Assembly: GCA_963755715.1 (NCBI GenBank)
Contig: CAVWLW010000075.1
Location: 24,483 to 88,482, forward strand
Length of the DNA: 64,000 nucleotides
DNA from: an uncultured delta proteobacterium
GTDB lineage: Bacteria; Desulfobacterota; Binatia; UBA9968
Direction of reading: 5' to 3'
Each line of letters starts with the position of its first letter. The stretch's first letter is position 1. The notes beneath the pieces were generated by a model, which worked only from the letters and a program-made list of their open reading frames with translations, was not told the DNA's origin and did no database searches. Below, one piece after another: positions 28,850 through 42,792 of this stretch. The translations under genes and the position numbers were made by a program.

Positions 28850-29667
28850 ATGACAAGTTCAAAATTAAAAATATTCTTGCTGATCAGCGCGGCGCTAATC
28901 TTGCCGCGCTCAGTCCAGGGCCACGACGGCTGGATCCAGGTCACCAGATCGTCGAAAAGGGTCAGCCAGTGTCTATTGCGCTCATGCACGGCAACCACTC
29001 CAACGAACATGGAAGTTTTCGTCTCGCCGGCAAATGGGATGCGCAGTACACGAAATTGCTCGTTATCGATCCGTCCGGAAAAATAAGCGATCTCACCAAC
29101 ACAATTGTCGACCTCGGGGAAGATCCCGAGAAGACCGGACCCAAGGGTCCGAAAGGTTCTCATCTGGCGCGGTTCACGCCAAAAACAGACGGCGTTTATA
29201 TCGTGCTGGCTCGACAGGAGCGAAGCCTGCAACAAGGGGACGGGCCCAAACTGCGGACGATGAGAAACGCCAGATCGGCATTCGTTGCGCTGGGCAATCC
29301 GAAGGTCGTCGAGGCACAAAAGGCGAAAGGCTTCGAGAGAACCTTTGCGCTGAACAATCTTTTGGAGATCGTCCCGATGAGCAATCCTTTCAGCACGACC
29401 GAGAAAGGCACTCTGATCCTGCAAGTGCTATTAAATGGCCAACCGGCAGCAAACCAGTCAGTGACTGTCATTGGCCAAATGGCCAGCGCGGCGTCGGCGC
29501 AAGATCTGAAAACCGATAGCCAGGGACGTGTTCACGTCACGGTCGGTGCGCCGGACACCTATCTTGCCCGGGTCAAGTTTGACGAAGACGTCCGTCAATC
29601 ATCCGAGCAAACTGACAAGAGTTCTTACGAGGCGACGTATGTCTTTCAAGTTTTCAATCGCAGCTAA
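28850..29667 (+). CDS. DUF4198 family periplasmic protein (frameshift near 28945)
   Basis: Signal peptide followed by HDGWI; HGNHSNEH; LEIVPMSNP; LQVLLNGQP; KTDSQGRV; C-terminal YEATYVFQV. Confidence 0.75.
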
Positions 29668-30016
29668 TCTCGCTCTGGCCGCGCTGTTTTGTGCCCGGAT
29701 TCAGCCCGCTTTCGGACACGCTTATCCAATCATCGTGTCTCCGGCTGACGGCGCCTCGCTCAAAGAATCGCCGCGCGAAGTCCGGATGCAATTTACCGAG
29801 GGTATCGAGCTCGCGTTCAGCCGGATCACGGTGAAGGGAGCCAAAGGCGAAGTGGTAGGCCAAGGTAAATTACGTCAATTGGCCGATGACACCGTCGCGA
29901 TCGACCTGAAGCCTTTAAGCGCCGGAAATTATACCATCGAATGGCAAGTACTCTCCGTCGATACCCATATAACGGAAGGCACGCTGCACTTCACGTTCAG
30001 CCCGGGCGGTAAATAG
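29639..30016 (+). CDS. copC: copper resistance protein CopC
   Basis: Mature N-terminal His (HAYPIIVSPADGA) and WQVLSVDTHITEG Cu(II) motif. Confidence 0.9.
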   Translation: MSFKFSIAANLALAALFCARIQPAFGHAYPIIVSPADGASLKESPREVRMQFTEGIELAFSRITVKGAKGEVVGQGKLRQLADDTVAIDLKPLSAGNYTIEWQVLSVDTHITEGTLHFTFSPGGK

Positions 30017-30024
30017 TCACGTCT

Positions 30025-31283
30025 ATGCTCGCGCTCGAAGCTATTGTCTCGGCATTGAGTTTTATCGCTCTCGCGCTGTTTCTTGGACAGATCGTCGCCG
30101 CCGGTTTTTTATTGCCGGGCGGCGAGCCGCGGACGTTTCGCGCGAGTCTCATGCATGGGGGTTTAATCTCGTTGAGCGCATTTCTTGGCATCGCGCTCAT
30201 CGCTCTATTTTTGCAAGGCGCAAAAATTCAGCGCGCGATCCCATCGCTCGAGTTGCTTTGGCGCTATCTTACGATGACGCAAAGCGGTCACGTCTGGCTT
30301 GGACGGGAAACCTACGGTGCGGCATTGATTCTAATTGTTTGGACTTTTGTGAAAAAGGCGAACGGTGTCAAAGCCGTTCGAACCTTCGCGGTACTGGCCC
30401 TGCCGCTGGTCGCAAGCCGCAGTTTGATGAGTCATGCCGCGGCGCTGCGCGAAGGCGCCGCCGTGGCGATCGCCGCCGACGCGCTCCATTCAATCGCGAC
30501 GGCGCTTTGGGCTGGCGGTTTGATGGCTCTCTGCCGAGTACTTTTCCTCGCCGCCAAACGCTGGCCACAAGCCGCTTCGTGGCGTGCGGAAATCGTCAAT
30601 CGCTTCTCTCGTCTCGCTCTTGTCAGCGTCGCGCTGATTATCGCCACGGGTACCTATCAAAGCTGGATCCACGTCGGCGGTTTCGAAACACTGGTCAATA
30701 CCGACTATGGAAAGACTCTGATACTCAAACTAGTATTTTTCGTTCTTATGCTCGGATTAGGTGCGTTGAATTTATTCGCGACAAAACCCCTGCTGAAACG
30801 CCTCGCACCGCCGGCGACAACCAGCCATCGGAGAACAGGAAATCATTGCGGAGAATCGCCGTCGAAAGTATTATGGGTTTGCTAATTTTCAGCGCCACGG
30901 GCTTGCTGACCGTGCTTCCACCAGGAGTTCATGCCGTCCACCAAGCCGCCACGATGAATCGATCCGCCATCTCAACGACCGCCACCGGCACGGCTCAACC
31001 GCTGATGCTCGCAGAAGGCGCTCGGGTTAAGATTTTGTCTCCTGCACCGCAGCAAATATTCACCGGTGACAAAGTGCCGTTAAAATTCACTTTAACCAAG
31101 GGCAAGCGCGGCGCGCACGTGCACGCGTACATCGACGGTGAATTATTGGGCATGTTTGAAAGCCAACAGGGAACCTTGAATGGCATCACGCCGGGTCGTC
31201 ATACATTGGAGCTGCGTGTCGTCGCCGCTGATCATCAAACGGAATTGGATGCCAAGGATCGTATTGAATTCATCGTCAAATAG
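30025..31283 (+). CDS. copD: CopD family copper importer fused to a C-terminal HVH beta domain (frameshift near 30810)
   Basis: SLMSHAAA, DALHSIATALWAGG, RFSRLAL and TDYGKTLILKL. The second frame supplies the last TM (IAVESIMGL...LTVLPP) and a soluble domain. Confidence 0.8.
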
Positions 31284-31298
31284 GTTGAAGAGGGAAAT

Positions 31299-31712
31299 AT
31301 GAAATTTTTGAATTTGGCCGCTGCCTTCTTGTCCGTGGGTTTCGTCGCAGTCGCTCAAGAGGGCCACGACCACATGAAGAGCATGGAGACGCCAACCAAG
31401 CAGACTGAGAAAACGGCGGCGAAATCGGCTCTGAAGCCGGCTCAGGGCGCCAGCGTCAAAATTGTTTCTCCTAAAGCGGGCCAGGTCATCAAGGGCGACT
31501 CCGTACCGCTCGAGTTCAAACTGACCAAGGGCAAGATCGGCGAGCATGTTCATGCTTACGTCGACGGCGAGATGGCGGGCATGTTCAAAGGCGCCAAGGG
31601 AACCTTGAATGGCATCAAGCCGGGCCAACACACTCTAGAGCTCCGAGTCACCACCGGCGATCACAACACCGAGTTAAATGCCACTGACACCGTGCAGTTT
31701 GTCGTCAAATAG
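31299..31712 (+). CDS. periplasmic HVH-motif beta-sandwich protein (DUF4399/DUF6130-like)
   Basis: Signal peptide; EGHDHM; SVKIVSP...EHVHAYVDG...PGQHTLELRV...DH. Paralogous to the CopD C-terminal domain. Confidence 0.7.
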   Translation: MKFLNLAAAFLSVGFVAVAQEGHDHMKSMETPTKQTEKTAAKSALKPAQGASVKIVSPKAGQVIKGDSVPLEFKLTKGKIGEHVHAYVDGEMAGMFKGAKGTLNGIKPGQHTLELRVTTGDHNTELNATDTVQFVVK

Positions 31713-31726
31713 AGAAAGGATTTGTT

Positions 31727-32638
31727 GTGAACTGGATCTGTCACAAACAGCGCGGCCTCGCCAGGGTTGTCTTCTCACTCTTGACGGTTTTGCAGCTGTT
31801 TGGCGGGGCGAAAGATTTGTCCGGCGCCGAGCGCGCTATGGACACGCAAGACCCGATGACCGTAATCCAGAGTTACCTGCGCGCAACTTATGCCCGCGAT
31901 TTCGCCGCCGCCTATCGGTTTATTTCGGCCGAAGACCGCAACGTGCGTGACGTGAATCGTTACGTTCAGCAACGCGGTCCTTACAGCGGCTTCATACTCG
32001 ATGCAGCGAGAAAGCTCAGCGAATTTATCGAAGTCGGGATATTGAACGCGCAAGAATCGCCGCGCGGTGTCCGCATGGCGATCAAGTACCGCGTGCCCGA
32101 CCCGCAAAAAATCGCGCCGCTGTTGTTGAATTGGGACGCTCGTCGACTGAACTCTCTGCCAGCGACCGAGCGCAAACAAATCATCGATGCGCTTGATAAG
32201 CGCCAGCACGAAGGCTCTCTTGAAATGAGCGAAGGACAAGAAATATTCGAGCTGATTAGAGAAGCGAACGAGTGGCGAGTTTTTTTGAATTGGCAAGCCG
32301 GTGTTAAAATCCCGCTCAAGCTCGACTTGTCCAAGTCGCCGGACTTGGACGTGATGCTTTCCAAGAATGAATTCGTCGTACAGCCCGGCGACTTGTTCGA
32401 GATCGTCTTAAAAATCAAAAACCGCACCCAACAGCCGATGACCGTGCGCATTGGCCATCTCGTCGAGCCCAGCACGATCGCCGATTATCTCGATTTCGTC
32501 CAGTGCGGTTTTCTCTTGCCGGTAACGGTTCAGCCGGACAAGGAACAGGAATTTTCTGGCACCTATATGCTGCGTGGCAGTCTTCCCGAAGGCGTCCGGG
32601 GCCTGAACCTGACCTACGATTTTCGTCAGCTTAAGTGA
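31727..32638 (+). CDS. exported protein with NTF2-like N-domain and CtaG/Cox11-like C-domain (paralog A)
   Basis: YARDF..AYRFISAED. The C-terminal VVQPGDLFEIV.KIKN...HLVEP...YLDFVQCGFLLPVTVQP...LTYDF resembles Cox11 but has a single Cys. Confidence 0.6.
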   Translation: MNWICHKQRGLARVVFSLLTVLQLFGGAKDLSGAERAMDTQDPMTVIQSYLRATYARDFAAAYRFISAEDRNVRDVNRYVQQRGPYSGFILDAARKLSEFIEVGILNAQESPRGVRMAIKYRVPDPQKIAPLLLNWDARRLNSLPATERKQIIDALDKRQHEGSLEMSEGQEIFELIREANEWRVFLNWQAGVKIPLKLDLSKSPDLDVMLSKNEFVVQPGDLFEIVLKIKNRTQQPMTVRIGHLVEPSTIADYLDFVQCGFLLPVTVQPDKEQEFSGTYMLRGSLPEGVRGLNLTYDFRQLK

Positions 32639-32751
32639 GCTGTTGCCGCGCTATCGACTGCCTATCTGGCAGCTCCGTGTTTTTTGTGGTTAATTGTTTT
32701 CAAAGAAAAAGTCCACGCCGTTCGTCTAATGCAATATGAGGTCAGAAACAG

Positions 32752-33342
32752 ATGAAAAACTTTAGCCGCGCTTGCCTAGCGCTGTTTTGGGCCCTGATCG
32801 GTCCATGGCAATTGAGCGATTTCAATTTCCCGGCGCTGTCAATCAGCGTCGCCAGCGCGCAAGATTCATCCTTCGAATCGAAAAAAATTGTGCCCTTTGT
32901 GCCCTCGCCGCAGGAGGTCGTCGATAAAATGATCGAGCTCGCCGGCGTGAAGAAAGACGACGTCGTGTTTGACATGGGTTCGGGTGACGGTCGGATCGTC
33001 ATCGCGGCGGCAAAAAAAGGCGCCAAAGCCACTGGCTTTGAAATCGATGGCGACCTGGTGAAAGAGTCGCGTGAAAATATTCGCAAGGCCGGCGTGCAGA
33101 ATCTAGCCGAGATTCGCCAGCAAGATATTTTGACTGTCGACTTTTCTCCCGCATCGGTCGTGACCATGTATCTGCTGCCGGACGTGAACTTGAAGTTGAA
33201 GCCTAATCTCCTTAGCCAACTGAAACCAGGCTCGCGGGTTGTCTCTCATTCCTTCGATATGGGCGATTGGAAACCGGACAAGGTCGAGAAGGTCGACTGG
33301 CGCACCATCTATCTTTGGACCATCCCGGAAAAGCGGCGCTAA
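32752..33342 (+). CDS. class I SAM methyltransferase with N-terminal signal peptide
   Basis: VPFVPSPQEVVDKMIELA, FDMGSGDGRIVI, VVTMYLLP and LKPGSRVVSHSF; signal ends ASA. Confidence 0.88.
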   Translation: MKNFSRACLALFWALIGPWQLSDFNFPALSISVASAQDSSFESKKIVPFVPSPQEVVDKMIELAGVKKDDVVFDMGSGDGRIVIAAAKKGAKATGFEIDGDLVKESRENIRKAGVQNLAEIRQQDILTVDFSPASVVTMYLLPDVNLKLKPNLLSQLKPGSRVVSHSFDMGDWKPDKVEKVDWRTIYLWTIPEKRR

Positions 33343-33392
33343 TCCGAGGGGACATTCTCGACCCATAGCCTGATCTTGCCTTCGCTTACCGA

Positions 33393-34286
33393 ATGTCCCG
33401 TATTTTCAAAAATTTTCTTCTGTTCGTTTTTAGCGCGGCCATGCTGGCGCTGCCCGCGATCTATTACATCAACGCGGCCCGCGACCGACAATCCGATGAG
33501 CCCAAGCAGGTATTGACGAAATATCTTAGGTTTCTCTATGCGCGCGACTTTCGCCACGCGTATCGTTTTATCGCTAGCGAGGATCAGCGCTTGAAACCGC
33601 AAAAGGATTACGTGCGCGAGCGCGGCCCGTTTAGCGGTTTCGCGTTGGATGCGGCACGAAAGCTTTCCGGGCTGATCGAGTTAAAGCCCGTGTCGGAGCA
33701 ACCGGACGGGAAAGCGAAGCGGGTTCGAGTCGCCATGAAGCTCCCTGACGCCAACGGCGTCTCCGCGTTATTGCTCGACTGGGATGAGAAACGCTTGAAT
33801 GCTCTGCCGGCGCCGGCACAAAAGAAGATCCTCGCGGCCATCGATGATCTAACGCGCCAAAAGAAATTGCCGATGATCGAAGGCGAGGAAGAGTTCGTTT
33901 TGGTGCAAGAAAATGCGCAGTGGAAAGTCCATCTCAACTGGGCCGCCGGAGTGAAGGTCAAGTTCGCTACTGTCCTGCCACCGGGCGGTGGGATCTTAGC
34001 GGAACCGATCATCAAGGAGACCATCGCGCGCTCGGACGACTTGTTCACGATCGGCTTCAACGTAAAAAACCGCACCTCCCGCGAACTCGTCACTCGCATC
34101 GTGCACCGGGTCGAGCCGAAAGAGATGGCGCCCTATCTCGATCTCGTTGAATGCGCCCTGTTGCTGCCAGTACGGCTTCGTCCCGGCGAAGAGCAGACTT
34201 ACAACAGCACCTATGTGGTTCGCGGCGATTTGCCCGATGGGATCAAAAACCTCAATGTCACTTATGAGTTCAAAGTCGAAAATTAG
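33393..34286 (+). CDS. membrane-anchored protein with NTF2-like N-domain and CtaG/Cox11-like C-domain (paralog B)
   Basis: Colinear with 31727..32638: YARDF..AYRFI.SED, RGP.SGF.LDAARKLS, LLL.WD..RLN.LP, HRVEP...YLDLVECALLLPV. Confidence 0.6.
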   Translation: MSRIFKNFLLFVFSAAMLALPAIYYINAARDRQSDEPKQVLTKYLRFLYARDFRHAYRFIASEDQRLKPQKDYVRERGPFSGFALDAARKLSGLIELKPVSEQPDGKAKRVRVAMKLPDANGVSALLLDWDEKRLNALPAPAQKKILAAIDDLTRQKKLPMIEGEEEFVLVQENAQWKVHLNWAAGVKVKFATVLPPGGGILAEPIIKETIARSDDLFTIGFNVKNRTSRELVTRIVHRVEPKEMAPYLDLVECALLLPVRLRPGEEQTYNSTYVVRGDLPDGIKNLNVTYEFKVEN

Positions 34287-34887
34287 CCGGGCAATTTTTT
34301 TCATCCTGCTCCTCAGCGCCTTTTTGGCCTCGGTCGTTTGGGCTCATATCCCCATCCCGCCCAAAGCGCCGAGTGAAATCGGCCGCCGGCCCGTAAAAAT
34401 CGCCGTGCCTGATTTCACGCTCACCGATCAGGACGGCAAACCCTTTCGTTTCGCCGCGGCGCGGGGAAAATTGATCCTGGTCACTTTCATCTTTACGACC
34501 TGTCCAGACGTGTGTCCGCTATTGACGGCCAATTTCGCCGCGATCCAACGCGCATTGGAAGAAAAGAAAGTTAAAGACTATCTCTTGCTGAGCATCACCA
34601 CCGATCCCGAGCAAGACACGGCGCCGGTCCTGAAAGATTACGCCGGCCGCTTCAAAGCGGACCTTCGACATTGGTCGCTTCTTACCGGCACGCGCTCGGA
34701 ATTGGCCAAAGTTTGGCAGGACTTCGGCGTCCACGTGGTCAAAAACGAATCAGGCCAAGTACAGCATACGACGTTTACGACTCTGGTGGATCGCCAGGGT
34801 AATCGACGGATCGACTACTACGGCGACAAATGGCAGGACAAGGAAGTTCTAAAAGACATTCAATGGCTCGCCTCGATAAAAAAGTGA
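34264..34887 (+). CDS. SCO1/SenC family copper chaperone (no. 2)
   Basis: FIFTTCPDVCP, ITTDPEQD and QVQHT. The mature protein is predicted to start HIPIPP. Confidence 0.9.
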   Translation: MSSKSKISRAIFFILLLSAFLASVVWAHIPIPPKAPSEIGRRPVKIAVPDFTLTDQDGKPFRFAAARGKLILVTFIFTTCPDVCPLLTANFAAIQRALEEKKVKDYLLLSITTDPEQDTAPVLKDYAGRFKADLRHWSLLTGTRSELAKVWQDFGVHVVKNESGQVQHTTFTTLVDRQGNRRIDYYGDKWQDKEVLKDIQWLASIKK

Positions 34888-35451
34888 AAGCGCTGATCGC
34901 CGTTGCTTCTTGCAGCCTCCTGATCGCTTTTTGTCTTCTCTCCTTGCCGGCGCGCGCTGCCGACAACGACCAAGGCGTGTTGGAAATACAGCTCAAAGAC
35001 CATCGCGAAGCGATCGACGATTTCGCCAAGTTCGATATCACGGTCGATAAAATCCTCATCAGCCCAAAGCCGGGGCTCATGTTTTGGCAAAGCGGCTGGA
35101 AAGAGTTGACGCCGTCGACCGCAACGATCGATCTGACGCAATACATCAACAAAAAAAGCGCGCGGATTTTTCGTAGCGCGATCAACGCCGGATCGTTCGA
35201 CGCGTTGGATATCAAAATCAAGAGCAGCGAAGCCGTGCTTAAAAAAACTCGTCGAGCCGGCGCAAGTCAAAAACACCGTCGGCCCGATAAAAATCACGTT
35301 CCAAGTACCGGCAAAAGGCGAAACTCTCCTCGTGCTCGATCTCGTCGTCACCGACTTCTCCGACCACCCGCCGCGCGGCTACGAATTGGGAATCAGAGGC
35401 TACGAGCTCTACACCAACGGCAAGCTGATTCAGAAAGTTCCACCAGTCTAG
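34863..35451 (+). CDS. exported DUF4382-like beta protein (frameshift near A7 run at 35241)
   Basis: Signal peptide ending ARA; GVLEIQLKDHREAIDDF..TIDLTQY. The second frame continues VKNTVGPI...LVLDLVVTDFSDHPPRGYEL...KVPPV*. Confidence 0.55.
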
Positions 35452-35703
35452 TCCACATTCCGGAAGTTCATAGAGTCCTCTCTAATTACACCAAGCTCTT
35501 TCATTTCAACATGGTCATCGGCCTGAGGTCGCAGGACGAGCTCTATTAACTTTCTATAACTACTTTGAATAAAGGCGCGTCCTTACGAATGCTTCTGAGC
35601 ATCGCAGTCCGAATATCCTAATGACCCAAACAGTCACCGCACGTGGCAGAAACTCATCGGGATTCAATGTTCGTGATTTTACAGTCTATCGTTGATAATA
35701 CGT

Positions 35704-36207
35704 TTAACAGATTCGAAGAATTGTTTCGCGGTAACCAGACTTGCATATTTTGAAGGACGCAGGCTTGATCGAGATCGCAAAGAGAAGGGACACGAATGCA
35801 AACGAGCCTTCCGGGTACAGGCGCTGACCGATACGAAACGTGGTTAATACGCAAATCGAGAACGAAGCAATAATTGCAAGTCGAACGACGGTCCTCGGAT
35901 CACTAGCGACCATTTGAGCTATTGAATATACGCCACCCAACAAAGCGTAATACAGTGGTCCATAAAGGGTGACAAGGTAAGGCGGGCGGTTAAAGTCGGG
36001 ATACAACTGTCCAGTTGACAAGAATTCCTGAACTCGAAGTAATGTAGCGCTCTCTGGATAGCCGACGTCTCTGAAATGCACTAAGTTCGCAATAGTCGTG
36101 ACCACCGTCACGAACAGGCCCACGACCAATAGAAAACCGATAGTACCTTCGACTATCGGAAGACCATTCGGTTTTTTAGAAGACATATTTGTGTATTGTT
36201 GAGCCAT
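35704..36207 (-). pseudogene. truncated membrane protein, N-terminus of an ArnT/GT39-like glycosyltransferase
   Basis: TM plus GYPES...LYPDFNRPPYLVTLYGPLYY. Opposite strand to the island, AT-richer, and ends abruptly. Confidence 0.4.
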
Positions 36208-36325: not shown

Positions 36326-36973
36326 ATGGAAACATCAAAGACTCGGTTTATCTTGCTTGGCTTGGCCGTGGTCGGCTTGGGAATCGTCTTCGGTACGGCG
36401 CTCTGGCTCAAGCTCGGACCTCACCCGCAATTCAGCCGCGACTCGTCGAACTCGATCGACGGTTTAAATCAGTATGGCCCGGTGCCGGATTTTTCATTCA
36501 TGGAAAGAGACGGCAGCGCCGTGAGCCTGTCACAGTTGCGCGGCAAAATATGGATCGCCGATTTCATCTATACGAGTTGCACCGACACGTGCCCGTTGCA
36601 AACAGCCATGATGGCGAAGCTGCAGGAAGAGTTCGCCGGCAAGCCAGACATTCAGCTCGTGTCGTTTTCCGTCGATCCCGAGCGCGATACACCGCAGGCG
36701 TTAGCGACCTATGCGGCGAAATATCAGGCCGACGCCAAGCGCTGGTATTTTTTGACCGGGCCGCGCGACCGCGTCCTACGTTTGGTGCAAGATGGTTTTC
36801 ATCTGGCGGTGGCCGCTCTGCCCAGCGATACCGATCCGAGCGGCACGATCCCGCATAGTCCGCGCTTCGTTTTAATCGACAAACAAGCGCGCATACGCGG
36901 CTACTACGATAGCCGGGAGTTGGAAGCTTTCGTCCGGCTCAAAAACGATATTGAAACTTTGGCGAAAGGATAG
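36326..36973 (+). CDS. SCO1/SenC family copper chaperone (no. 3)
   Basis: FIYTSCTDTCP, SVDPERDTP and IPHSPRFVLID. Confidence 0.92.
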   Translation: METSKTRFILLGLAVVGLGIVFGTALWLKLGPHPQFSRDSSNSIDGLNQYGPVPDFSFMERDGSAVSLSQLRGKIWIADFIYTSCTDTCPLQTAMMAKLQEEFAGKPDIQLVSFSVDPERDTPQALATYAAKYQADAKRWYFLTGPRDRVLRLVQDGFHLAVAALPSDTDPSGTIPHSPRFVLIDKQARIRGYYDSRELEAFVRLKNDIETLAKG

Positions 36974-36976
36974 GAG

Positions 36977-37849
36977 ATGGCCAACGACAGCATACGAAAA
37001 AACAAGCAAGCGGCAGCCAAAGTGAATTTGCGCGCCGGCCCGAACTGGCTGCTGTTCGGCCTGGCGCTGCTCGGCATGGCCTTGTCCGGCTATCTCACTT
37101 TTTCAGCATGGCAAGGTAGCCGCGTCGCGTTTTGCACCCAAGGCGCCGGCTGCGATGTCGTGCTCAACAGCCGTTGGTCGACGCTCTTCGGCATGCCGAC
37201 TTCTTTTTGGGGCTTTCTCACTTATGTGCTTCTGGCCGCCGTGGCTTGGAACAAAAACGTCGTCGACCAGTGGCGTTGGGCTTGGGTAATTGCGCTGTTC
37301 GGTTTGCTCTACAGCCTTTACCTGACATCGGTCGCTTTTTTTGAATTGCAGGCCGCCTGCCCTTATTGTCTGACATCGCTCGCCTTGATGGCGACCATCT
37401 TCATCGTTACCACATTTCAGCGGCCGAAGAGCTTGGCGAAATTTTCCTGGGGTCCGTGGCTCGCGAAAACCGTCGGTGTCGCCGTCGTTGCGATCCTCGC
37501 GCTCCATCTTCACTATGCCGGCTACTGGGGCGACACTCAGGGCCCGGAAGATCCGTGGGTCCGCGCTCTTGCCGAGCATCTCTCGAAGAGCGACGCCAAA
37601 TTTTACGGGGCTTCTTGGTGTCCCCACTGTGCTCAGCAAAAGGACCTGTTTGGTGCTTCGGTCAAGCGAATTCCCTATGTTGAATGCAGCCCCGGCGGTC
37701 CGCAAGCGCCTTCGGCTCCCGTCTGCAAAGAAAAGAACATCACTACCTATCCGACCTGGATCATCAATGGACAACGCTATACCGGCGTTCAACCTTTGGA
37801 TGCGCTCGCGCAGTTGACCAATTTTAAATATCAGGGGGGCAAACCATGA
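36977..37849 (+). CDS. VKOR family thiol oxidoreductase fused to a thioredoxin-like domain
   Basis: Loop Cys pair FC..GAGCDVVLNS, active site CPYC, and C-terminal YGASWCPHC...YVEC...TYPTW. Confidence 0.92.
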   Translation: MANDSIRKNKQAAAKVNLRAGPNWLLFGLALLGMALSGYLTFSAWQGSRVAFCTQGAGCDVVLNSRWSTLFGMPTSFWGFLTYVLLAAVAWNKNVVDQWRWAWVIALFGLLYSLYLTSVAFFELQAACPYCLTSLALMATIFIVTTFQRPKSLAKFSWGPWLAKTVGVAVVAILALHLHYAGYWGDTQGPEDPWVRALAEHLSKSDAKFYGASWCPHCAQQKDLFGASVKRIPYVECSPGGPQAPSAPVCKEKNITTYPTWIINGQRYTGVQPLDALAQLTNFKYQGGKP

Positions 37850-38325
37850 TCGGGCGCGCATCGATACTCCGCACCGCGATGCTTTTGACGCTTCTCACGG
37901 CGGTGATTCCTTTTTCACCTCGGCCGGCGCGCGCCGATCCGTCAAAATATCCCGAGTTTGCCCAACAACAGTTACCCGACAATATTACGCCGGTCTTTAT
38001 TCACATCGAGGAACTGGTCACGGATTTAAAAGGCGGCGCCAAGCCGCTGATCATCGACGTACGCAGCGAAGAAGAGTTTCGCGAAGTTCATATTCTGGGC
38101 GCGGTCTCCGCGCCGCTGGGCGACTTCAAAGATTATCTCAAGAGCATTCCACGCGACCGACCGGTCGTTCTCTATTGAGCGTGCCCCCATCACCTGGCCA
38201 GTTTGGCCTATGGCATTCTCTACGAAAACGGCTATCGCAACATGAAAGTGCTCGACGAAGGCATCGTCGGCTGGTACGAAAAGCACTATCCTATGGAAGG
38301 CACCAAAGCTCCGCCGCGGTCATAA
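37846..38325 (+). CDS. exported rhodanese-like protein, predicted selenoprotein (UGA at 38176-38178)
   Basis: Signal peptide, then IIDVRS..EF..HILGA. Reading through TGA gives VVLY-U-ACPHH...GYRNMKVLDEGIVGWYEKHYP and stops 3 nt before queC. Confidence 0.85.
38179..38216 (+). promoter_or_regulatory. candidate bacterial SECIS element
   Basis: Apical stem GGCCA-(GUU)-UGGCC with a G-first loop 22 nt after the UGA; lower pairing CCAU/AUGG or GUGCC/GGCAU. Confidence 0.65.
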
Positions 38326-38328
38326 AGC

Positions 38329-39019
38329 ATGGCTGACAAATGCGCGGTGATCTTTTAGCGGTGGCGTCGACTCGGCCACCGCCGCGGCGATGGCAAGAGA
38401 GCAAGGCTTCGAGTTACACGCGCTCAGCTTTCGCTACGGCCAGCGCCACGAGCGCGAGCTCGTCTCGGCGCAGAAGATCGCAAATTATCTGCACGCCAGA
38501 TCGCACAAAGAAATTGCCTTCGATCTTCGCGCGATCGGTGGTTCCGCGCTGACCGACCGAATCGAAGTCCCCAAGCGACGCAGCGCATCAGAAATCTCCC
38601 AAGGCATTCCCATCACCTACGTGCCGGCGCGCAACACGATCTTTCTGGCATTTGCATTGGCGCTCGCCGAGCGGATCGAAGCGCAGGATATTTTTTTCGG
38701 CGCCAATCAACTCGACTATAGCGGTTACCCTGACTGTCGCGAGGAATATATTCAGGCCTTTGAACGAATGGCGAATCTCGCCACCAAGGCCGGCGTCGAA
38801 GGCAAAAGCCGGATCAGGATTCAAACACCGTTGCTCAAAATGACCAAGGCGGAAATCATCCGCGCCGGCTTAAAGCTCGGGCTCGACTACGGGCTTACGT
38901 GGAGTTGCTACGACCCGCTTGCCGATGGCCGCGCATGCGGACGATGTGACAGTTGTCAGTTAAGGTTAAAAGGGTTCGAAGAGGCCGGCGCGGTTGACCC
39001 TATTCCGTATGCCGAGTGA
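38329..39019 (+). CDS. queC: 7-cyano-7-deazaguanine synthase (frameshift in T-run near 38354)
   Basis: [33 protein letters not shown] and TWSCY...ACGRCDSC. Confidence 0.92.
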
Positions 39020-39039: not shown

Positions 39040-41049
39040 TTAAGATCCTGCCTGCTGAACTTCGGAAGTGTCGTCCTTAGTCACCAGTCTCTTAATGCGC
39101 CTTTCCGAGTCTACCACGGGGATCATCTGTAGATTGTACCGTTTCAAAAGCTGGTTGAGCTCTTCTTGATTCAGGTCTTCCGGGGCCGTGATCACGTCGG
39201 TGCGCATAACATCTTGGACGGTCTTATCGCCCGGCGTGAGTAGCAAATCCCTGAAAGTGACTACCCCCAGCAACCGTTCTTCAGAATCGGTCACATAGGC
39301 GTAATAGATGGTCTGGGCGCGGTCCCGAGCATCTCGGCGCAGAAAGCTAACAGCCTCGTCGACGGTCATATGAGATCGCAAGCGGGCGTAACTTGGGTTT
39401 ATCAGGCCGCTAGCCTGGTCCGCCGCGTAATCGATCAGACCTTTCACTTCCCTGCGGGTCTTGTCATCGAGTAGCGCTAAAAGTCCATCACGTTCTTCGC
39501 CGGGCGCTTCCTGGAGCACGTCCAGTGCTTCATCAGGGGCAAGCAGTCTCATCCATAATTTCCGCTCTCCGGGTGGCAGAGCTAAAGTCAGTTGGGCCTT
39601 GTCGCGGGGACTAAGGTGCAGAAAAAAATTCTCCGCGTCATCCTGCTGGAGCAGCTTAAAGCCTTCGACTCGCTCCCGTATGGAAAGGATCGCCCAGGCC
39701 TCATAGAGTTCGCTTAGAGCAAAACTTTTCTCAGCAATTTTTCCGTCCTCACTTTCTAAATATAGTTCCCCGGCGCTGTCGTCGTAGGCAAACAGCTCGG
39801 CGTGCCGTCCCCAACTGATGGCGATGTCTAACTGTTTCTCGCTCAAATCACCGAAGTCCGCTTCCAGCTTGTCGCGGAAATAATCCCACGAGACTCGGCG
39901 ATTTTCGTCCTGCTGGAGGGTTTCATAGATCCAGGCGATAACCGGCAACCGTAAGACCCGCCCGGCGATTATCGCTTTACGGCCCAGAATGGTGGCATCA
40001 GCGTACGCGCGCCCGAGCGGGGTCAGTAGCAGATCGCCTTCATGCACCGTCATGAAACCCAGCAAGTCCCCCGCCTCGACGATCGGCAAGAGATCATCGA
40101 GTTCGAGGACCAGAGCGCCGCTGATCCGGTAAAGATCGACTCGTCCGCCGTCTTCCACAAGTTTCTCCAGCAGACCGGTAAGCGCGCTGAGCTGAGCATT
40201 CGGTAAGGCCCGGGTTACGCCAGGCTGTCCAGGTTGAGTGCCAAGCGTTTCTTCCTTCGGCTTGGATTGACCGGCAACGGCCGCGTACACTTTATCGACA
40301 AGGCCTTGGAAGGCAGTATCTTTGCGTTGCCGCGGCTGACGAAGCGTGACGGGAATCTCCGTTACAATGTGACCGGGATCTTTGCCCATGATCACGATGC
40401 GATCGGCCATCAACACGGCTTCTTCAATGTTGTGAGTGACCATCAAGATAGCTTTTGTCGGGATTTTCTTTTTCAGCCATAGTTCCATCAGCTCGCCACG
40501 TAAAGCCTCGGCGGAAAGCACGTCCAACGCGGAAAAAGGTTCGTCCAAACATAACAATTCCGGCTCGACGGCCATGGCGCGGGCAAAGCCCACTTTTTGC
40601 CGCATGCCGCCGGAGAGTTCACGCGGATATGCAGATTCGAATCCGTCTAGACCGACAACGTCAATCAATTTGAGAGCGCGCTCCTTGCGAGATTCGACCG
40701 GTACCCCGCGCGCTTTCAGTGCAATTTCCACGTTCTCTTGCACCGTGAGCCAGGGATAAAGCGCAAACGTTTGAAAGACAATCGTCGTGTAGGGATTGAC
40801 GCCTTTCAACTGCTGCCCGTGATAGGAAACCACCCCAGAAGTAGCGGCGTTCAATCCTGCAATGATCCGCAGCAACGTCGATTTCCCGCACCCAGATGGC
40901 CCCAGCAAGCAGACAAATTCACCTGGCTTGATGCGGAGATTGATGTCTTTGACGGCGAGAAATTGTTTGGTTTCCAGCCGGTAAGCTTTGGTGACGCTTT
41001 GAAGGTCCAACAAATCGTCGGAGTCATTGAGTGCTGTTGCAGTAACCAT
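39040..41049 (-). CDS. NitT/TauT-family ABC ATPase (with AAA-associated C domain) fused to the MgtE N-domain and a CBS pair
   Basis: GPSGCGKST, LSGGMRQ and DEPFSALD; WGRHAELFAYD. Then EAWAILSIRERVEGF...WMRLLAPDEALDVLQEAP and CBS IYYAYVTD..LLGVV / IPVVD. GGAGG RBS. Confidence 0.85.
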   Translation of the reverse strand: MVTATALNDSDDLLDLQSVTKAYRLETKQFLAVKDINLRIKPGEFVCLLGPSGCGKSTLLRIIAGLNAATSGVVSYHGQQLKGVNPYTTIVFQTFALYPWLTVQENVEIALKARGVPVESRKERALKLIDVVGLDGFESAYPRELSGGMRQKVGFARAMAVEPELLCLDEPFSALDVLSAEALRGELMELWLKKKIPTKAILMVTHNIEEAVLMADRIVIMGKDPGHIVTEIPVTLRQPRQRKDTAFQGLVDKVYAAVAGQSKPKEETLGTQPGQPGVTRALPNAQLSALTGLLEKLVEDGGRVDLYRISGALVLELDDLLPIVEAGDLLGFMTVHEGDLLLTPLGRAYADATILGRKAIIAGRVLRLPVIAWIYETLQQDENRRVSWDYFRDKLEADFGDLSEKQLDIAISWGRHAELFAYDDSAGELYLESEDGKIAEKSFALSELYEAWAILSIRERVEGFKLLQQDDAENFFLHLSPRDKAQLTLALPPGERKLWMRLLAPDEALDVLQEAPGEERDGLLALLDDKTRREVKGLIDYAADQASGLINPSYARLRSHMTVDEAVSFLRRDARDRAQTIYYAYVTDSEERLLGVVTFRDLLLTPGDKTVQDVMRTDVITAPEDLNQEELNQLLKRYNLQMIPVVDSERRIKRLVTKDDTSEVQQAGS

Positions 41050-41068
41050 GGGATACCTCCGATGCAGA

Positions 41069-42792
41069 CTATTCCATGCGATAACGTTGTTCAGCCAATC
41101 TATAGAGGCGGCGCCAGAATGTTCGATTGATAAAAACAACCGTGATCACAAGAGCGAGCGTTGCGGCCAATAGAAGCGCATAATCACCGGTACCGGTCGC
41201 CTGCGCGATCAGCGCTCCGACCCCAGTTGTAGCGTGAGTTTCGCCGCCGAATTCAACGTGTTCAGCTACGATACTTGCATTCCAGGCGCCGCCGCTCGCC
41301 GTGATGGCTCCGGTGATGATGTATGGAAAAAGCGCGGGCAAGATCAAAGTCCGCCAGCGGTCCAGAGATGAGAGGCGAAGCAGGTCGGTGGTGTAACGCA
41401 AATCTTGCGGAATAGCCGCCGCACCCGCGATTACATTGAATAGCAAATACCACTGCGTTCCCATCAACATGAGGAGCACAGCGGCGATGTTTAAACCGCC
41501 CGGCGCTTGCAGCAGCGCCAGCAACATCACGGGGAAAAGCGCCGTCGCCGGAATGGATGCAACCACTTGCACGATTGGCTGGAGAATTGCGGCAAGACGA
41601 CGATTGGTTCCGATAAACACGCCGACCGGAATGGTCCAGATCAAAGTAATCGCGAGTGCAACGCTCACCCGAAGGAAAGTGGCGACGATGCCTTTTCCCA
41701 AATCCGCCCATGCGGAACCGGAAGAGCTAGCCAATAGGGTTGCTGCCCGATAACCTCCGTATAAAGCCCCTAGCAAGAAAGCAGTCAGGATCCCTATCGC
41801 CAGGCGAGAAGCCGTCGCGTCGCCAGACGGTTCAAGCGAGGCAATGACTCCACTCGTGCGTCGCTGAAACCCTCTGTCGACCCATTCACTAAAGGGCCGC
41901 CAGATGCGCGTGCCAAATTGCTCTATAACCCAGGCGCGCGAAATCAAATCAAGAAACCACGACCGCGGCGGCTCATCGCCTTCGACCATGTCGACTTTAA
42001 ACTTATCGGTCCAGGCAATCAGAGGCCGCCAGACAAATTGATCGAGCAAAACGATCACGAGGACCAAGGTTGCGACACCCAAAATGACAGCGCGCAGATT
42101 TCCCTCGTTAGCCGCGGTTTGCAAATACGACCCAGTCCCGGCAAGCGAAAATCTCGGCTCCCGACGTTGAAAATTTCAGCGGCCATGAGGAAAAACCAAC
42201 CGCCCGACCAACTCATCATGCTGTTCCATAGCAATCCCATCGCCGCGAACGGAAGTTCAACCGCCTTAAAGCGTAGCCAGGGATCGAAGCGAAAAACCGC
42301 GGCGGCTTCCCGCATTTCGGTCGGGATCGTGGTCATGGACTGATAAAAACTGAAGGTCATGTTCCACGCTTGCGAGGTGAAGATAAGCACGATAGCGGCA
42401 AACTCGGCGGCAAATGCTTGAGGTAGGACGGCGCTTAGACTGAGCAGGACAACCGGCAGGAATGACAGGATGGGCACACTTTGCAGCACATCCAGCACGG
42501 GCATGAGCACCGTTCGCGCGGTGCGGTTGCGCGCGGCGGCGTAACCGTAGAACAAGCTGAACAGCATGGAGAGAAAATACGCCGCCGCCATGCGTCCAAC
42601 AGAAAGCAAAGCATACCACGGCAATGCCAATGGTGAGAGAGATATATCCGGACCCGCAATGACGGCAGGGACATGGAAAGCCAAGCGCACGCCAACGTAA
42701 AGAATTGTGGAAATGCCCAGCAAGATAAGCACGTCACCAACGGTGAATGCGGGGGTTTCGAGCAGCGCTGGACTGAAGCGAAATTGACGCAC
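41069..42792 (-). CDS. NitT/TauT-family ABC permease with duplicated TM domain (frameshift near 42132)
   Basis: DVLQSVPILSFLP, FTSQAWNM, WNSMMSWSGGWFFL; second half ASIPATALFP, GTQWYLLFNVIAGA, GGAWNASIVAE. Confidence 0.88.

Follow-up and report, generated by a model that had tools for sequence, protein, structure and literature searches.

Our analysis strongly supports a hidden exported selenoprotein in the window, the whole 64,000-nt stretch of DNA from an uncultured delta proteobacterium of the Binatia that was analysed here, as an earlier note on this DNA had proposed. The gene encodes an exported single-domain rhodanese whose in-frame TGA almost certainly stands for selenocysteine; a hairpin that starts 17 nt downstream would assist its decoding. 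Its U-x-C active-site loop is a sixth form of rhodanese selenoprotein and the mirror image of a C-x-U form encoded in the same genome. The whole explanation, in which selenocysteine recoding serves a periplasmic redox carrier in an SCO and copper context, is favoured with moderate confidence.

A rhodanese gene with an in-frame TGA codon

The ORF at 37846-38178 ends with VVLY-TGA, and the TGA occupies 38176-38178. When this codon is read through, the same frame continues for 48 codons (38179-38322) to a TAA at 38323-38325. The read-through product comprises 159 aa, ...VVLY-U-ACPHHLASLAYGILYENGYRNMKVLDEGIVGWYEKHYP..., and residues 112-159 include ...NMKVLDEGIVGWYEK... The ATG of the gene at 37846 overlaps the TGA of the upstream VKOR-thioredoxin (VKOR-Trx) ORF (36977..37849) as ATGA, and the ATG of queC at 38329 lies 3 nt past the rhodanese TAA. 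The 48-codon continuation and both gene junctions agree with the description in the earlier note. The elements of the gene are as follows.

37846..38325, + strand: exported Sec-rhodanese CDS, 159 codons plus TAA, with the in-frame TGA as codon 111
37846..37935, + strand: predicted Sec-type signal peptide, residues 1-30, with cleavage after A-R-A and before DPSKYPEF (sequence features)
38176..38178, + strand: selenocysteine codon UGA (U111) at the catalytic Cys position of the rhodanese loop
38182..38184, + strand: codon of Cys113, the proposed resolving Cys of the U-x-C pair, followed by P114, H115 and H116

In profile alignments with rhodaneses of solved structure, residue 111 coincides with the catalytic Cys, where the earlier note had located the TGA, and the continued frame completes the fold as claimed. 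Pfam Rhodanese (PF00581) covers residues 60-145 with 59.2 bits against a cut-off of 22.2. The AF2 model has a mean pLDDT of 89, and its best Foldseek matches are the single-domain rhodaneses 3nhv (E = 3e-9) and 6mxv. The active-site loop of the family reads U-x-C-P-[H/R]-H, which is U111-A-C113-P-H-H116 here. C113 is at least 90% conserved, P114 and H116 are invariant, and position 115 is His or Arg; the Arg replaces this first His of the loop in families f2 and f3. Two further segments are family-wide, an N-terminal DPSKYPEFAQQ and P-[HR]-H-L-A-S-L-A-Y...R-N-M-K-V-L.

The signal peptide named in the earlier note is predicted from sequence features, which recur in the orthologs. All 41 full-length orthologs carry a presequence of 20-31 aa whose hydrophobic core reaches a Kyte-Doolittle value of 2.1 or more in the best 10-aa window, with small residues at -3/-1 and with Ala, Gly or Ser at -1 ahead of the conserved DPSKYP; a Lys or Arg lies near the N-terminus in 40 of the 41. 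The AF2 model forms a helix at residues 4-23 in this region. These features suggest that the rhodanese is exported.

Conservation of the TGA codon and the selenocysteine machinery

The TGA codon is kept in 43 of 44 orthologs (E <= 1e-30) from 61 related genomes, in 42 of the 43 loci extracted among relatives, and in 63 of the 65 loci recovered by a scan of all GTDB species. One of the remaining two loci carries GGA and the other, L129, carries TGC and reads VYCACPHH. Cys also stands at the aligned position in the proteins P0177, P0240, P0213 and P0226, the first three of which share CAC-P. The predicted alternation of Cys and UGA was therefore borne out, as homologues exchange TGA and TGC within Y-[U/C]-A-C-P-H-H. 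In a tree with midpoint root only, P0177, P0240 and P0226 fall outside the selenocysteine clade, and P0213 forms a long branch inside a 31-row clade. The Cys-type set derives from a representative search that returned mostly multi-domain rhodaneses; single-domain matches were followed, and 7 of 150 were fetched. The family is present in nearly all sampled genomes of one genus and in most of its order.

The frame downstream of the TGA is under protein-level selection. Its 43 codons past the TGA show codon periodicity, with entropies of 0.52, 0.27 and 1.01 at positions 1, 2 and 3, and this in-frame region has no start of its own and completes the rhodanese fold. In the G036 lineage both U and C are lost and the gene is retained. 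P0130, the sole full-length natural stand-in of the clade, has neither redox residue.

The genome encodes the machinery whose presence the earlier note had proposed as a check. A tRNA-Sec with anticodon tca was found (76.7 bits), and the profiles of selB (416 bits), selA (617 bits) and selD (213 + 155 bits) all score over their cut-offs; selB is over cut-off in 54 of 61 related genomes. In this assembly selD is split over two frames by one frame change. A comparable break in queC is absent from independent contigs, and therefore the frame change in selD is likely, if not proven, to be an assembly error. At the selenocysteine codon itself, an independent soil-metagenome contig (run X2; 1057 nt, depth 30.7) spans the TGA with no difference listed there and thus agrees with the assembly. 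Contigs from RNA libraries (X15 and X16) cover part of the gene, up to 38184, and possibly represent DNA, so that they are no sign of transcription or translation.

These data bear on the contrary reading, in which the TGA truly ends the protein as a 110-aa fragment, results from a sequencing error or specifies an amino acid in a non-standard code. Public gene calls do stop there: among the best 120 database matches, 118 are proteins of 97-111 aa, cut at or before residue 111. Indel errors occur elsewhere in the assembly, and the JGI protein P0010 reads Trp at the TGA site. A different genetic code, to which this Trp could point, is ruled out; neither code 4 nor code 25 fits, since the VKOR-Trx gene and several orthologs of the rhodanese gene themselves terminate at TGA as a normal stop. 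The contrary reading further has to face the TGA in 63 of 65 species-level loci, the conserved start-less frame that completes the fold, the same codon in the independent contig and the encoded selenocysteine machinery. It is already close to refuted and is considered highly improbable, and selenocysteine is retained as the meaning of the codon.

A conserved hairpin downstream of the TGA codon

The hairpin GGCCA-GUU-UGGCC, which the earlier note had seen downstream of the TGA, comprises 5 bp and a GUU loop. Its first paired base lies 17 nt past the last base of the UGA and its loop G (38201) 22 nt past it, the latter being the distance given before. It may form part of a larger element.

38196..38208, + strand: apical hairpin GGCCA-GUU-UGGCC of the proposed SECIS, with conserved pairing and frozen synonymous sites
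38177..38220, + strand: possible full SECIS, tentative, in which 38177-38185 pairs with 38212-38220 as a lower stem around the apical hairpin (MFE structure)

Pairing of the hairpin holds in 98.8% of cells over 64 distinct sequences, with 13 changes from G-C to G-U and one compensatory C-G. The columns hardly vary, and covariation is therefore no proof of the hairpin: shuffles match the observed scores in 148-459 of 500 cases, with this single compensatory change. Over codons +4 to +12, synonymous diversity is lower than anywhere else in the gene (0.31 vs 0.75), a dip over the hairpin codons with a Mann-Whitney p of about 1e-4 for sequences that are related to each other. Ala+7 is encoded by GCC in 63 of 63 sequences and Ser+8 by AGT in 61 of 61. 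Because the codons that contain it are themselves conserved, constraint on the protein accounts for part of the conservation of the hairpin. Homologues with TGC or GGA lack it; L129 (TGC) has no GGCCAGUUUGGCC hairpin although L-A-S-L-A is retained. A similar apical A[GUC]U hairpin is located past the UGA of selD in the same genome.

Folding of a 47-nt element gives -15.7 kcal/mol (z = -1.98; 8 of 200 shuffles fold as well), and the fold of a wider 91-nt stretch is ordinary (z = 0.37). The lower stem is considered tentative because its pairing drops to 84.6% over the family as a whole and fails in family f3. RNAalifold on 69 sequences did not recover the hairpin and returned another, weak consensus of -2.86 kcal/mol. 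Rfam, scanned over 37800-38400 at E <= 10, gave no SECIS match, its sole hit being a chance CRISPR repeat.

Comparison with known rhodaneses

The earlier note was right that selenocysteine-containing rhodaneses are known; the known forms, however, carry other motifs. The table of a 2026 review (PMC13188914), whose supplements may list more, catalogues five forms of rhodanese-domain selenoprotein with the motifs UxxS, UxxG, CxU and UxxxxU, and none of them is U-x-C. The best-scoring curated family is NF041203 'rhodanese_LYCAU' (form 3, C-x-U), which likewise has a single rhodanese domain. Both proteins hold one selenocysteine and one Cys two residues apart in swapped order, C-x-U there and U-x-C here. 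The protein reaches 59.6 bits and the search of the genome 52.9 bits, both short of the NF041203 cut-off (115 bits). The loop nevertheless aligns in register, LY-[C/U]-A-[U/C]-P, with the C-A-U domain of locus L069 in the same genome, at 30% identity. Predicted export, the DPSKYPEFAQQ segment, the P-[HR]-H-L-A-S-L-A-Y...R-N-M-K-V-L segment and the SCO/VKOR-Trx neighbours distinguish the present family from NF041203.

Judged by their motifs in the review table (PMC13188914), forms 1, 2 and 4 likewise place selenocysteine at the start of the PF00581 active-site loop. They are set apart by the table descriptions, which give UxxS or UxxG and no second redox Cys, in contrast to U-A-C-P here. Form 5, TsoB (NF045694), likewise combines selenocysteine with a rhodanese domain, and it is linked to the thiol-redox machinery of the envelope. 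It is a rhodanese/DsbD fusion-like protein of 572 positions with UxxxxU, compared with the single domain of 159 aa here, and its cut-off of 805 bits is missed with 22.3 bits.

The Cys-type C-A-C-P rhodaneses (P0177, P0240, P0213 and L129) have a common fold with the selenoprotein, a Y-C-A-C-P-[HN]-[HE] loop and the RN(M/V)KVL and EG..GW segments, with Cys in place of selenocysteine. L129 lacks the hairpin as well as SCO and VKOR-Trx neighbours, and no characterised member of this C-A-C-P type was found. PspE of E. coli is likewise an exported, periplasmic single-domain rhodanese, but has one Cys, no selenocysteine and a different gene context. The PspE equivalog (26.5 bits) and GlpE (19.5 bits) both miss their cut-offs of 102 bits. 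Overexpression of PspE is said to restore disulfide bond formation in a dsbA mutant, a result attributed to Chng et al. in 2012, and a periplasmic rhodanese can therefore presumably join thiol-disulfide chemistry. Our literature search found no selenoprotein or selenocysteine work on Binatia or Binatota.

Gene neighbourhood

The rhodanese gene follows SCO and VKOR-Trx genes and lies downstream of a copper-handling island.

29528..35549, + strand: copper-handling island (Pfam scans of the window)
29528-30016, + strand: CopC (Pfam)
30025-30885, + strand: CopD (Pfam)
31727-32638 and 33393-34286, + strand: Cox11-like genes (weak Pfam matches, 26.3 and 31 bits vs a cut-off of 25)
34147-34887, + strand: second SCO (Pfam)
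34830-35549, + strand: DUF4382 (Pfam)
36326..36973, + strand: SCO1/SenC copper chaperone with CxxxCP (Pfam SCO1-SenC, 102.5 bits)
36977..37849, + strand: VKOR-thioredoxin fusion (Pfam VKOR, 88.1 bits) with a WCPHC thioredoxin-type motif in the translation

The coupling to VKOR-Trx and SCO asserted by the earlier note holds as gene order: VKOR-Trx is immediately upstream of the rhodanese in 59 of 65 loci, and SCO is upstream in 55 of 65. It does not hold as an obligate partnership with VKOR-Trx, which the presence/absence pattern rules out because each gene occurs without the other. VKOR-Trx is found without the rhodanese in 11 related genomes. In G037 the order is Cox11-like, DUF4382, SCO, VKOR-Trx. 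Conversely, the rhodanese occurs without a VKOR-Trx match in G043 and G045; in G043 it directly follows SCO. SCO is the neighbour that remains where VKOR-Trx is missing (L146), and neither gene adjoins the rhodanese at L117, L141 and L129. The separation of VKOR-Trx and rhodanese in some genomes, the three loci without both neighbours and the G036 lineage without U and C count against the function proposed below.

Proposed function

In the proposed mechanism, Sec111 would act as the attacking nucleophile and Cys113 would resolve the adduct to a selenenylsulfide, making the rhodanese a periplasmic two-electron redox carrier. Because the gene ends a conserved cluster (Cox11-like, DUF4382, SCO1, VKOR-Trx), the carrier would most likely exchange redox equivalents with the CxxxC of SCO or with the client of SCO. 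Where VKOR-Trx is present, its thioredoxin domain might be the partner instead or in addition, which would provide a link to the quinone pool. The exchange would tune the thiol state required for copper insertion. The signals of selenocysteine recoding, the fold, the loop motif, the export features and the gene order were observed, whereas the selenenylsulfide, the redox partners and the course of electron flow are inferred. Together they suggest a periplasmic selenenylsulfide redox role in the maturation of SCO and copper centres. The specific exchange with SCO, its client or VKOR-Trx for copper insertion is put forward tentatively, at somewhat less than even confidence.

A functional analogy is offered by TlpA of Bradyrhizobium, which according to PMC6669012 is the dedicated periplasmic oxidoreductase that keeps the cysteines of ScoI reduced before copper binding. 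It would thus have the role proposed here, setting the thiol state of SCO before metallation. The two proteins would resemble each other in function alone, since TlpA is a membrane-anchored protein of the thioredoxin fold with CVPC and serves as the reductant of ScoI and CoxB. VKOR is described as a DsbB equivalent in PMC5403849. A VKOR system gives oxidising power, while SCO needs reduction, which blurs the direction of any relay. The selenol/thiol relay suggested in the earlier note was drawn only from gene order, and parts of it are weakened because VKOR-Trx and rhodanese are not obligate partners, the first His of the loop varies, and the known selenocysteine-containing rhodaneses carry other motifs.

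The rhodanese fold itself, with its reactive residue at the canonical catalytic position, raises the possibility of a sulfurtransferase or chalcogen carrier. Sec111 would then take sulfane sulfur (or selenium) from thiosulfate, polysulfide or persulfide as Se-S(H), and Cys113 would only protect or release the adduct; the copper context would be incidental or a sign that sulfide or copper sulfide is being detoxified. Among curated families the closest are sulfurtransferase-like, though all are below cut-off, and exported rhodaneses such as PspE exist. However, the aligned sulfurtransferases have a basic loop of the CRxGxR type that U-A-C-P-H-H does not match, the neighbours scanned include no visible sulfur-oxidation or -reduction genes, and the conservation of the second Cys in at least 90% of sequences points to a dithiol-type cycle. 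We regard this alternative as unlikely, and prefer the redox carrier.

C-x-C motifs bind Cu(I) in Cox11 and the SOD1 chaperone. The U-x-C-P-H/R-H loop could similarly be a Cu(I)/Cu(II) site built from selenolate, thiolate and imidazole, with the rhodanese fold as a scaffold only; as a periplasmic metallochaperone or cupric reductase, the protein would then supply SCO, the Cox11-like proteins or CopCD. Such a site would suit a cluster that includes CopC, CopD and two genes each of the SCO and Cox11-like kinds, as well as the constancy of SCO as a neighbour and the invariant His116 beside U and C. The Cys form L129 adjoins an ORF judged Fur-family-like by eye, and other metal-handling selenoproteins with UxC or CU motifs appear in the review table (PMC13188914). 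By contrast, the first His becomes Arg in families f2 and f3, and rhodanese domains are not known as copper chaperones. Literature searches found nothing that ties a rhodanese together with SenC to copper, and no VKOR and rhodanese pair of this kind. Copper binding is considered rather improbable, and the redox carrier remains the preferred function.

Implications

The U-x-C and C-x-U proteins of one genome amount to a natural experiment that asks at which residue of a C-x-C redox pair selenium is of benefit. The in-frame TGA also reveals a family of soil Binatia that annotation pipelines miss and whose proteins are listed as truncated, because nearly all of the best database matches are cut at or before residue 111. 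At the speculative end, and with low probability, this may be the first selenoprotein of copper-centre biogenesis, in which U111/C113/H116 would act on copper by binding or reduction, or switch the CxxxC of SCO between open and closed states, and VKOR-Trx would recycle the rhodanese to the quinone pool. If this were true, the selenium status of Binatia would control whether cytochrome oxidase and other cuproenzymes are assembled. The fixed place of the gene behind SCO1 in a copper-handling cluster makes a connection of selenium with periplasmic copper or thiol chemistry concrete and open to test in this uncultured phylum of soil bacteria.

The read-through product is a complete rhodanese

The selenocysteine (Sec) rhodanese gene occupies positions 37846 to 38325 of the window, directly behind a fusion of VKOR and thioredoxin (VKOR-Trx).

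36977..37849, + strand: VKOR-Trx fusion (Pfam VKOR, 88 bits), with WCPHC in the C-terminal domain
37846..38178, + strand: short ORF of the Sec-rhodanese, ending in VVLY and the TGA at 38176-38178
38196-38208, + strand: hairpin GGCCA-GUU-UGGCC, starting 17 nt past the UGA, with the loop G 22 nt past it

The rhodanese ATG and the TGA stop of VKOR-Trx share the letters ATGA. When the TGA at 38176-38178 is read through, 48 further codons follow in frame to the TAA at 38323-38325, giving a 159-residue product, and the ATG of the next gene, queC, lies 3 nt past this TAA at 38329. This arrangement reproduces what the earlier note had described, including the completion of the fold. The product contains a complete Rhodanese domain (PF00581, residues 60-145, 59.2 bits versus a cut-off of 22.2). 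An AlphaFold2 model built with 30 orthologs as input has a mean pLDDT of 89, and its top Foldseek matches are the single-domain rhodaneses 3nhv and 6mxv (E ~1e-8 to 1e-9). Residue 111, encoded by the TGA, falls on the catalytic cysteine in profile alignments to solved rhodaneses, and the 110-aa fragment by itself would be without the active-site loop and the final helix-strand-helix.

All 41 full-length orthologs tested carry a presequence of 20-31 residues with a hydrophobic core and A, G or S at -1, followed by the conserved mature N-terminus DPSKYP[E/Q][F/Y]AQQ; K or R occurs near the N-terminus in 40 of them. From these features, which agree with the signal peptide noticed earlier, we infer that the rhodanese is exported.

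The TGA codon almost certainly encodes selenocysteine

An ortholog was found at E <= 1e-30 in 44 of 61 related genomes, with an in-frame TGA in every one except G036. Among the 43 extracted loci, 42 read LY-U-[A/Q/E]-C-P-[H/R]-H and that of G036 reads FY-G-N-R-P-R-H. A scan of one genome per species (185,579 species), which used two peptide patterns only and may miss distant members, gave 65 loci. Of these, 63 have TGA (62 by script and L140 by eye), L129 has TGC and the G036 record has GGA. Their record titles name MAGs of Candidatus Binatia or carry older 'Deltaproteobacteria' labels, and a few are labelled otherwise. As the earlier note anticipated, cysteine alternates with UGA: Y-C-A-C-P is read in L129 and in three database proteins, P0177, P0240 and P0213. 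Two unpublished genomes, G005 (locus L036) and G035 (L068), enter the ortholog, locus, selB and VKOR-Trx tallies only; they are left out of the ortholog alignments A1 and A2, and none of the conclusions depends on them.

The frame downstream of the TGA codes for protein. Mean column entropy after the TGA is 0.52, 0.27 and 1.01 at codon positions 1, 2 and 3 in 69 distinct TGA-bearing sequences (72 distinct stretches less the unpublished L036 and two non-TGA forms). The Sec machinery is present in the window's own genome (G000): tRNA-Sec scores 76.7 bits (cut-off 47; ARAGORN anticodon tca), selB 416 (242), selA 617 (268) and selD, with its own TGA, 213 + 155 (125). Across the related genomes, selB is above its cut-off in 54 of 61.

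Two other explanations of the TGA were rejected. Neither TGC nor TGT was seen at the codon in X2, an independent soil run, whose contig (1057 nt, depth 30.7) covers 37589-38643 with no difference listed at 38176-38178; this agreement rejects an assembly error. A change of genetic code is rejected because TGA terminates the adjoining VKOR-Trx gene and several of the rhodanese orthologs. Five lines of evidence agree, and the assignment of the rhodanese as a real selenoprotein gene is well supported.

At least two conserved genes in the assembly, queC and selD, carry an indel. In queC (38329-39019), the ATG at 38329 leads to a TAG at 38356-38358, and QueC then continues in the neighbouring frame. 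Relatives and contigs of three independent runs (X1, X2 and the RNA library X16) have two extra letters behind 38354, and the break is therefore particular to the window's assembly or strain. Besides its in-frame TGA (Sec), selD (G000:C3:71086-72013, minus strand; L018, L019) has one frame change at an A run near C3:71650, probably introduced as a homopolymer error during assembly; were it real, it would leave the genome with no intact selenophosphate synthetase.

The downstream hairpin is a likely SECIS element

A 47-nt element that begins at the UGA forms a lower stem topped by the apical hairpin, with a folding energy of -15.7 kcal/mol (z = -1.98; 8 of 200 shuffled sequences are at least as stable). 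In an alignment of 64 distinct sequences, 98.8% of the cells for the five apical pairs are paired; changes comprise 13 G-C to G-U and a single compensatory switch from G-C to C-G, which uses two synonymous third positions (L112), and one apical pair is broken in four sequences. The lower stem is paired in 84.6% only and does not form in family f3, for which inspection by eye suggests a possible shifted hairpin.

The strongest evidence for a probable constraint on the RNA is the freezing of synonymous sites. Normalised synonymous entropy is 0.31 at codons +4 to +12 versus 0.75 for the other 35 conserved codons, the lowest of all 9-codon windows (Mann-Whitney p ~1e-4, overstated since the sequences are related). 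Ala+7 is GCC in 63/63 and Ser+8 is AGT in 61/61. Of the two non-TGA forms, the high-GC L129 keeps L-A-S-L-A as CTC GCG AGC CTC GCC and has lost the hairpin, and the GGA homolog has no hairpin either. The selD gene of the same genome carries GCAA[GUC]UUGC after its own UGA, with the same A[GUY]U apex.

For the SECIS geometry proposed in the earlier note, the hairpin is present and conserved with frozen synonymous sites, but covariation among the 64 sequences does not exceed shuffling controls, RNAalifold does not predict the hairpin and Rfam has no match to the element. The hairpin is likely, though not proven, to be a SECIS element.

The protein belongs to a U-x-C variant of the rhodanese selenoproteins

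Among curated families, NF041203 'rhodanese_LYCAU' scores highest, with 59.6 bits versus a cut-off of 115. In the table of a 2026 review, rhodanese selenoproteins come in five forms, whose motifs are UxxS, UxxG, CxU (NF041203), UxxG and UxxxxU (TsoB), and U-x-C is absent from that table (PMC13188914); an earlier review is in line with this (PMC9312934). The own genome also encodes two C-x-U rhodanese domains with in-frame TGA.

G000:C57:126227-126571 (L069): FCAUPDE; C-terminal domain of a long membrane protein with a cation/proton antiporter-like look
G000:C50:4197-4382 (L073): LYCSUPNE; upstream part not rhodanese in the same frame

In BLASTP, one of them aligns in register with the Sec-rhodanese (C-A-U-P versus U-A-C-P, 30% identity), and the U-x-C family is therefore a positional mirror of form 3 (C-x-U), with Sec and Cys swapped. 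It is a new variant of the known rhodanese selenoproteins, so far from Binatia-type MAGs only. Public protein sets fail to recognise the family and annotate it as truncated: 118 of the best 120 database matches are 97-111 aa, and 11 of 13 fetched proteins end in [V/I]VLY, with one frameshifted and one (P0010) called with W at the site and continuing ACPHHLASLAY.

A tree of 35 rows, rooted at the midpoint only and with its long branches flagged, places three Cys forms (P0177, P0240 and P0226) outside the Binatia clade. P0213, itself a long branch, sits within a 31-row clade, and the G036 form is nested within the Binatia clade. This topology fits an origin of Sec from a C-x-C rhodanese, followed by a single later loss. 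In G036 (L056/L123, FYGNRPRH), G and R replace U and C, but the protein is otherwise retained, as are its VKOR-Trx neighbour and selB; this form may be a redox-dead derivative. The sole TGC ortholog (L129:3932-4438), from a MAG labelled Rokubacteria, lacks neighbouring SCO and VKOR-Trx genes and runs into the start of an ORF (4435-4911) that resembles a Fur-family metal regulator by eye.

The gene lies in an SCO-centred copper cluster

SCO1/SenC (Pfam, 102.5 bits) lies upstream of VKOR-Trx, and further upstream in the window are DUF4382, a second SCO, two weak Cox11-like genes, CopD, CopC and a ZnuABC-type transporter. Of the 65 loci, 59 have VKOR-Trx directly in front of the rhodanese and 55 have SCO upstream, most misses being contig ends; queC is downstream in 44. 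The proposed coupling to VKOR-Trx and SCO agrees with this gene order, but VKOR-Trx is not an obligate partner, since each occurs without the other: 11 related genomes (G037-G042, G046, G048, G050, G053, G060) have VKOR-Trx and no rhodanese ortholog, and G043 and G045 have the Sec-rhodanese and no VKOR-Trx match. The gene orders of G037 (Cox11-like, DUF4382, SCO, VKOR-Trx, SIS) and G043 (SCO, Rhd(U), SIS), together with this distribution, therefore identify SCO as the constant neighbour.

The Cox11/CtaG matches are weak and C-terminal, in two ~300-aa proteins (31727-32638 and 33393-34286; 26.3 and 31 bits versus a cut-off of 25) that flank a methyltransferase gene in this copper island; their counterpart in G037 reaches 93.5 bits. 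Between DUF4382 and the second SCO gene, a hydrophobic ORF of 167 aa (35704-36207, - strand) runs in the other direction and has no match in Pfam. A 699-aa ORF (39040-41139, - strand) has an unusual architecture, with ABC ATPase and AAA_assoc_C fused to MgtE_N and CBS.

A redox role is proposed for the U111/C113 pair

Copper-binding C-x-C motifs occur in Cox11 and CCS, and U111, C113 and H116 could form a putative copper-binding site. H116 is invariant, but families f2 and f3 have Arg in place of the first His of the 'HH', which weakens the metal binding suggested earlier for this pair. The Sec-rhodanese could also be a genuine sulfur or selenium transferase.

From the motif and gene order we infer a redox exchange role instead. 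The cysteines of SCO are described as having to be kept in the right redox state before copper binding by a dedicated periplasmic oxidoreductase, TlpA (PMC6669012), and VKOR as a quinone-linked generator of disulfides that resembles DsbB (PMC5403849). Electrons could flow in either direction, since oxidising power comes from VKOR and SCO needs reduction. In the proposed redox role, the U111/C113 pair would cycle through a selenenylsulfide, and the rhodanese would exchange redox equivalents with SCO or its client and, where VKOR-Trx is present, also with the fused thioredoxin.
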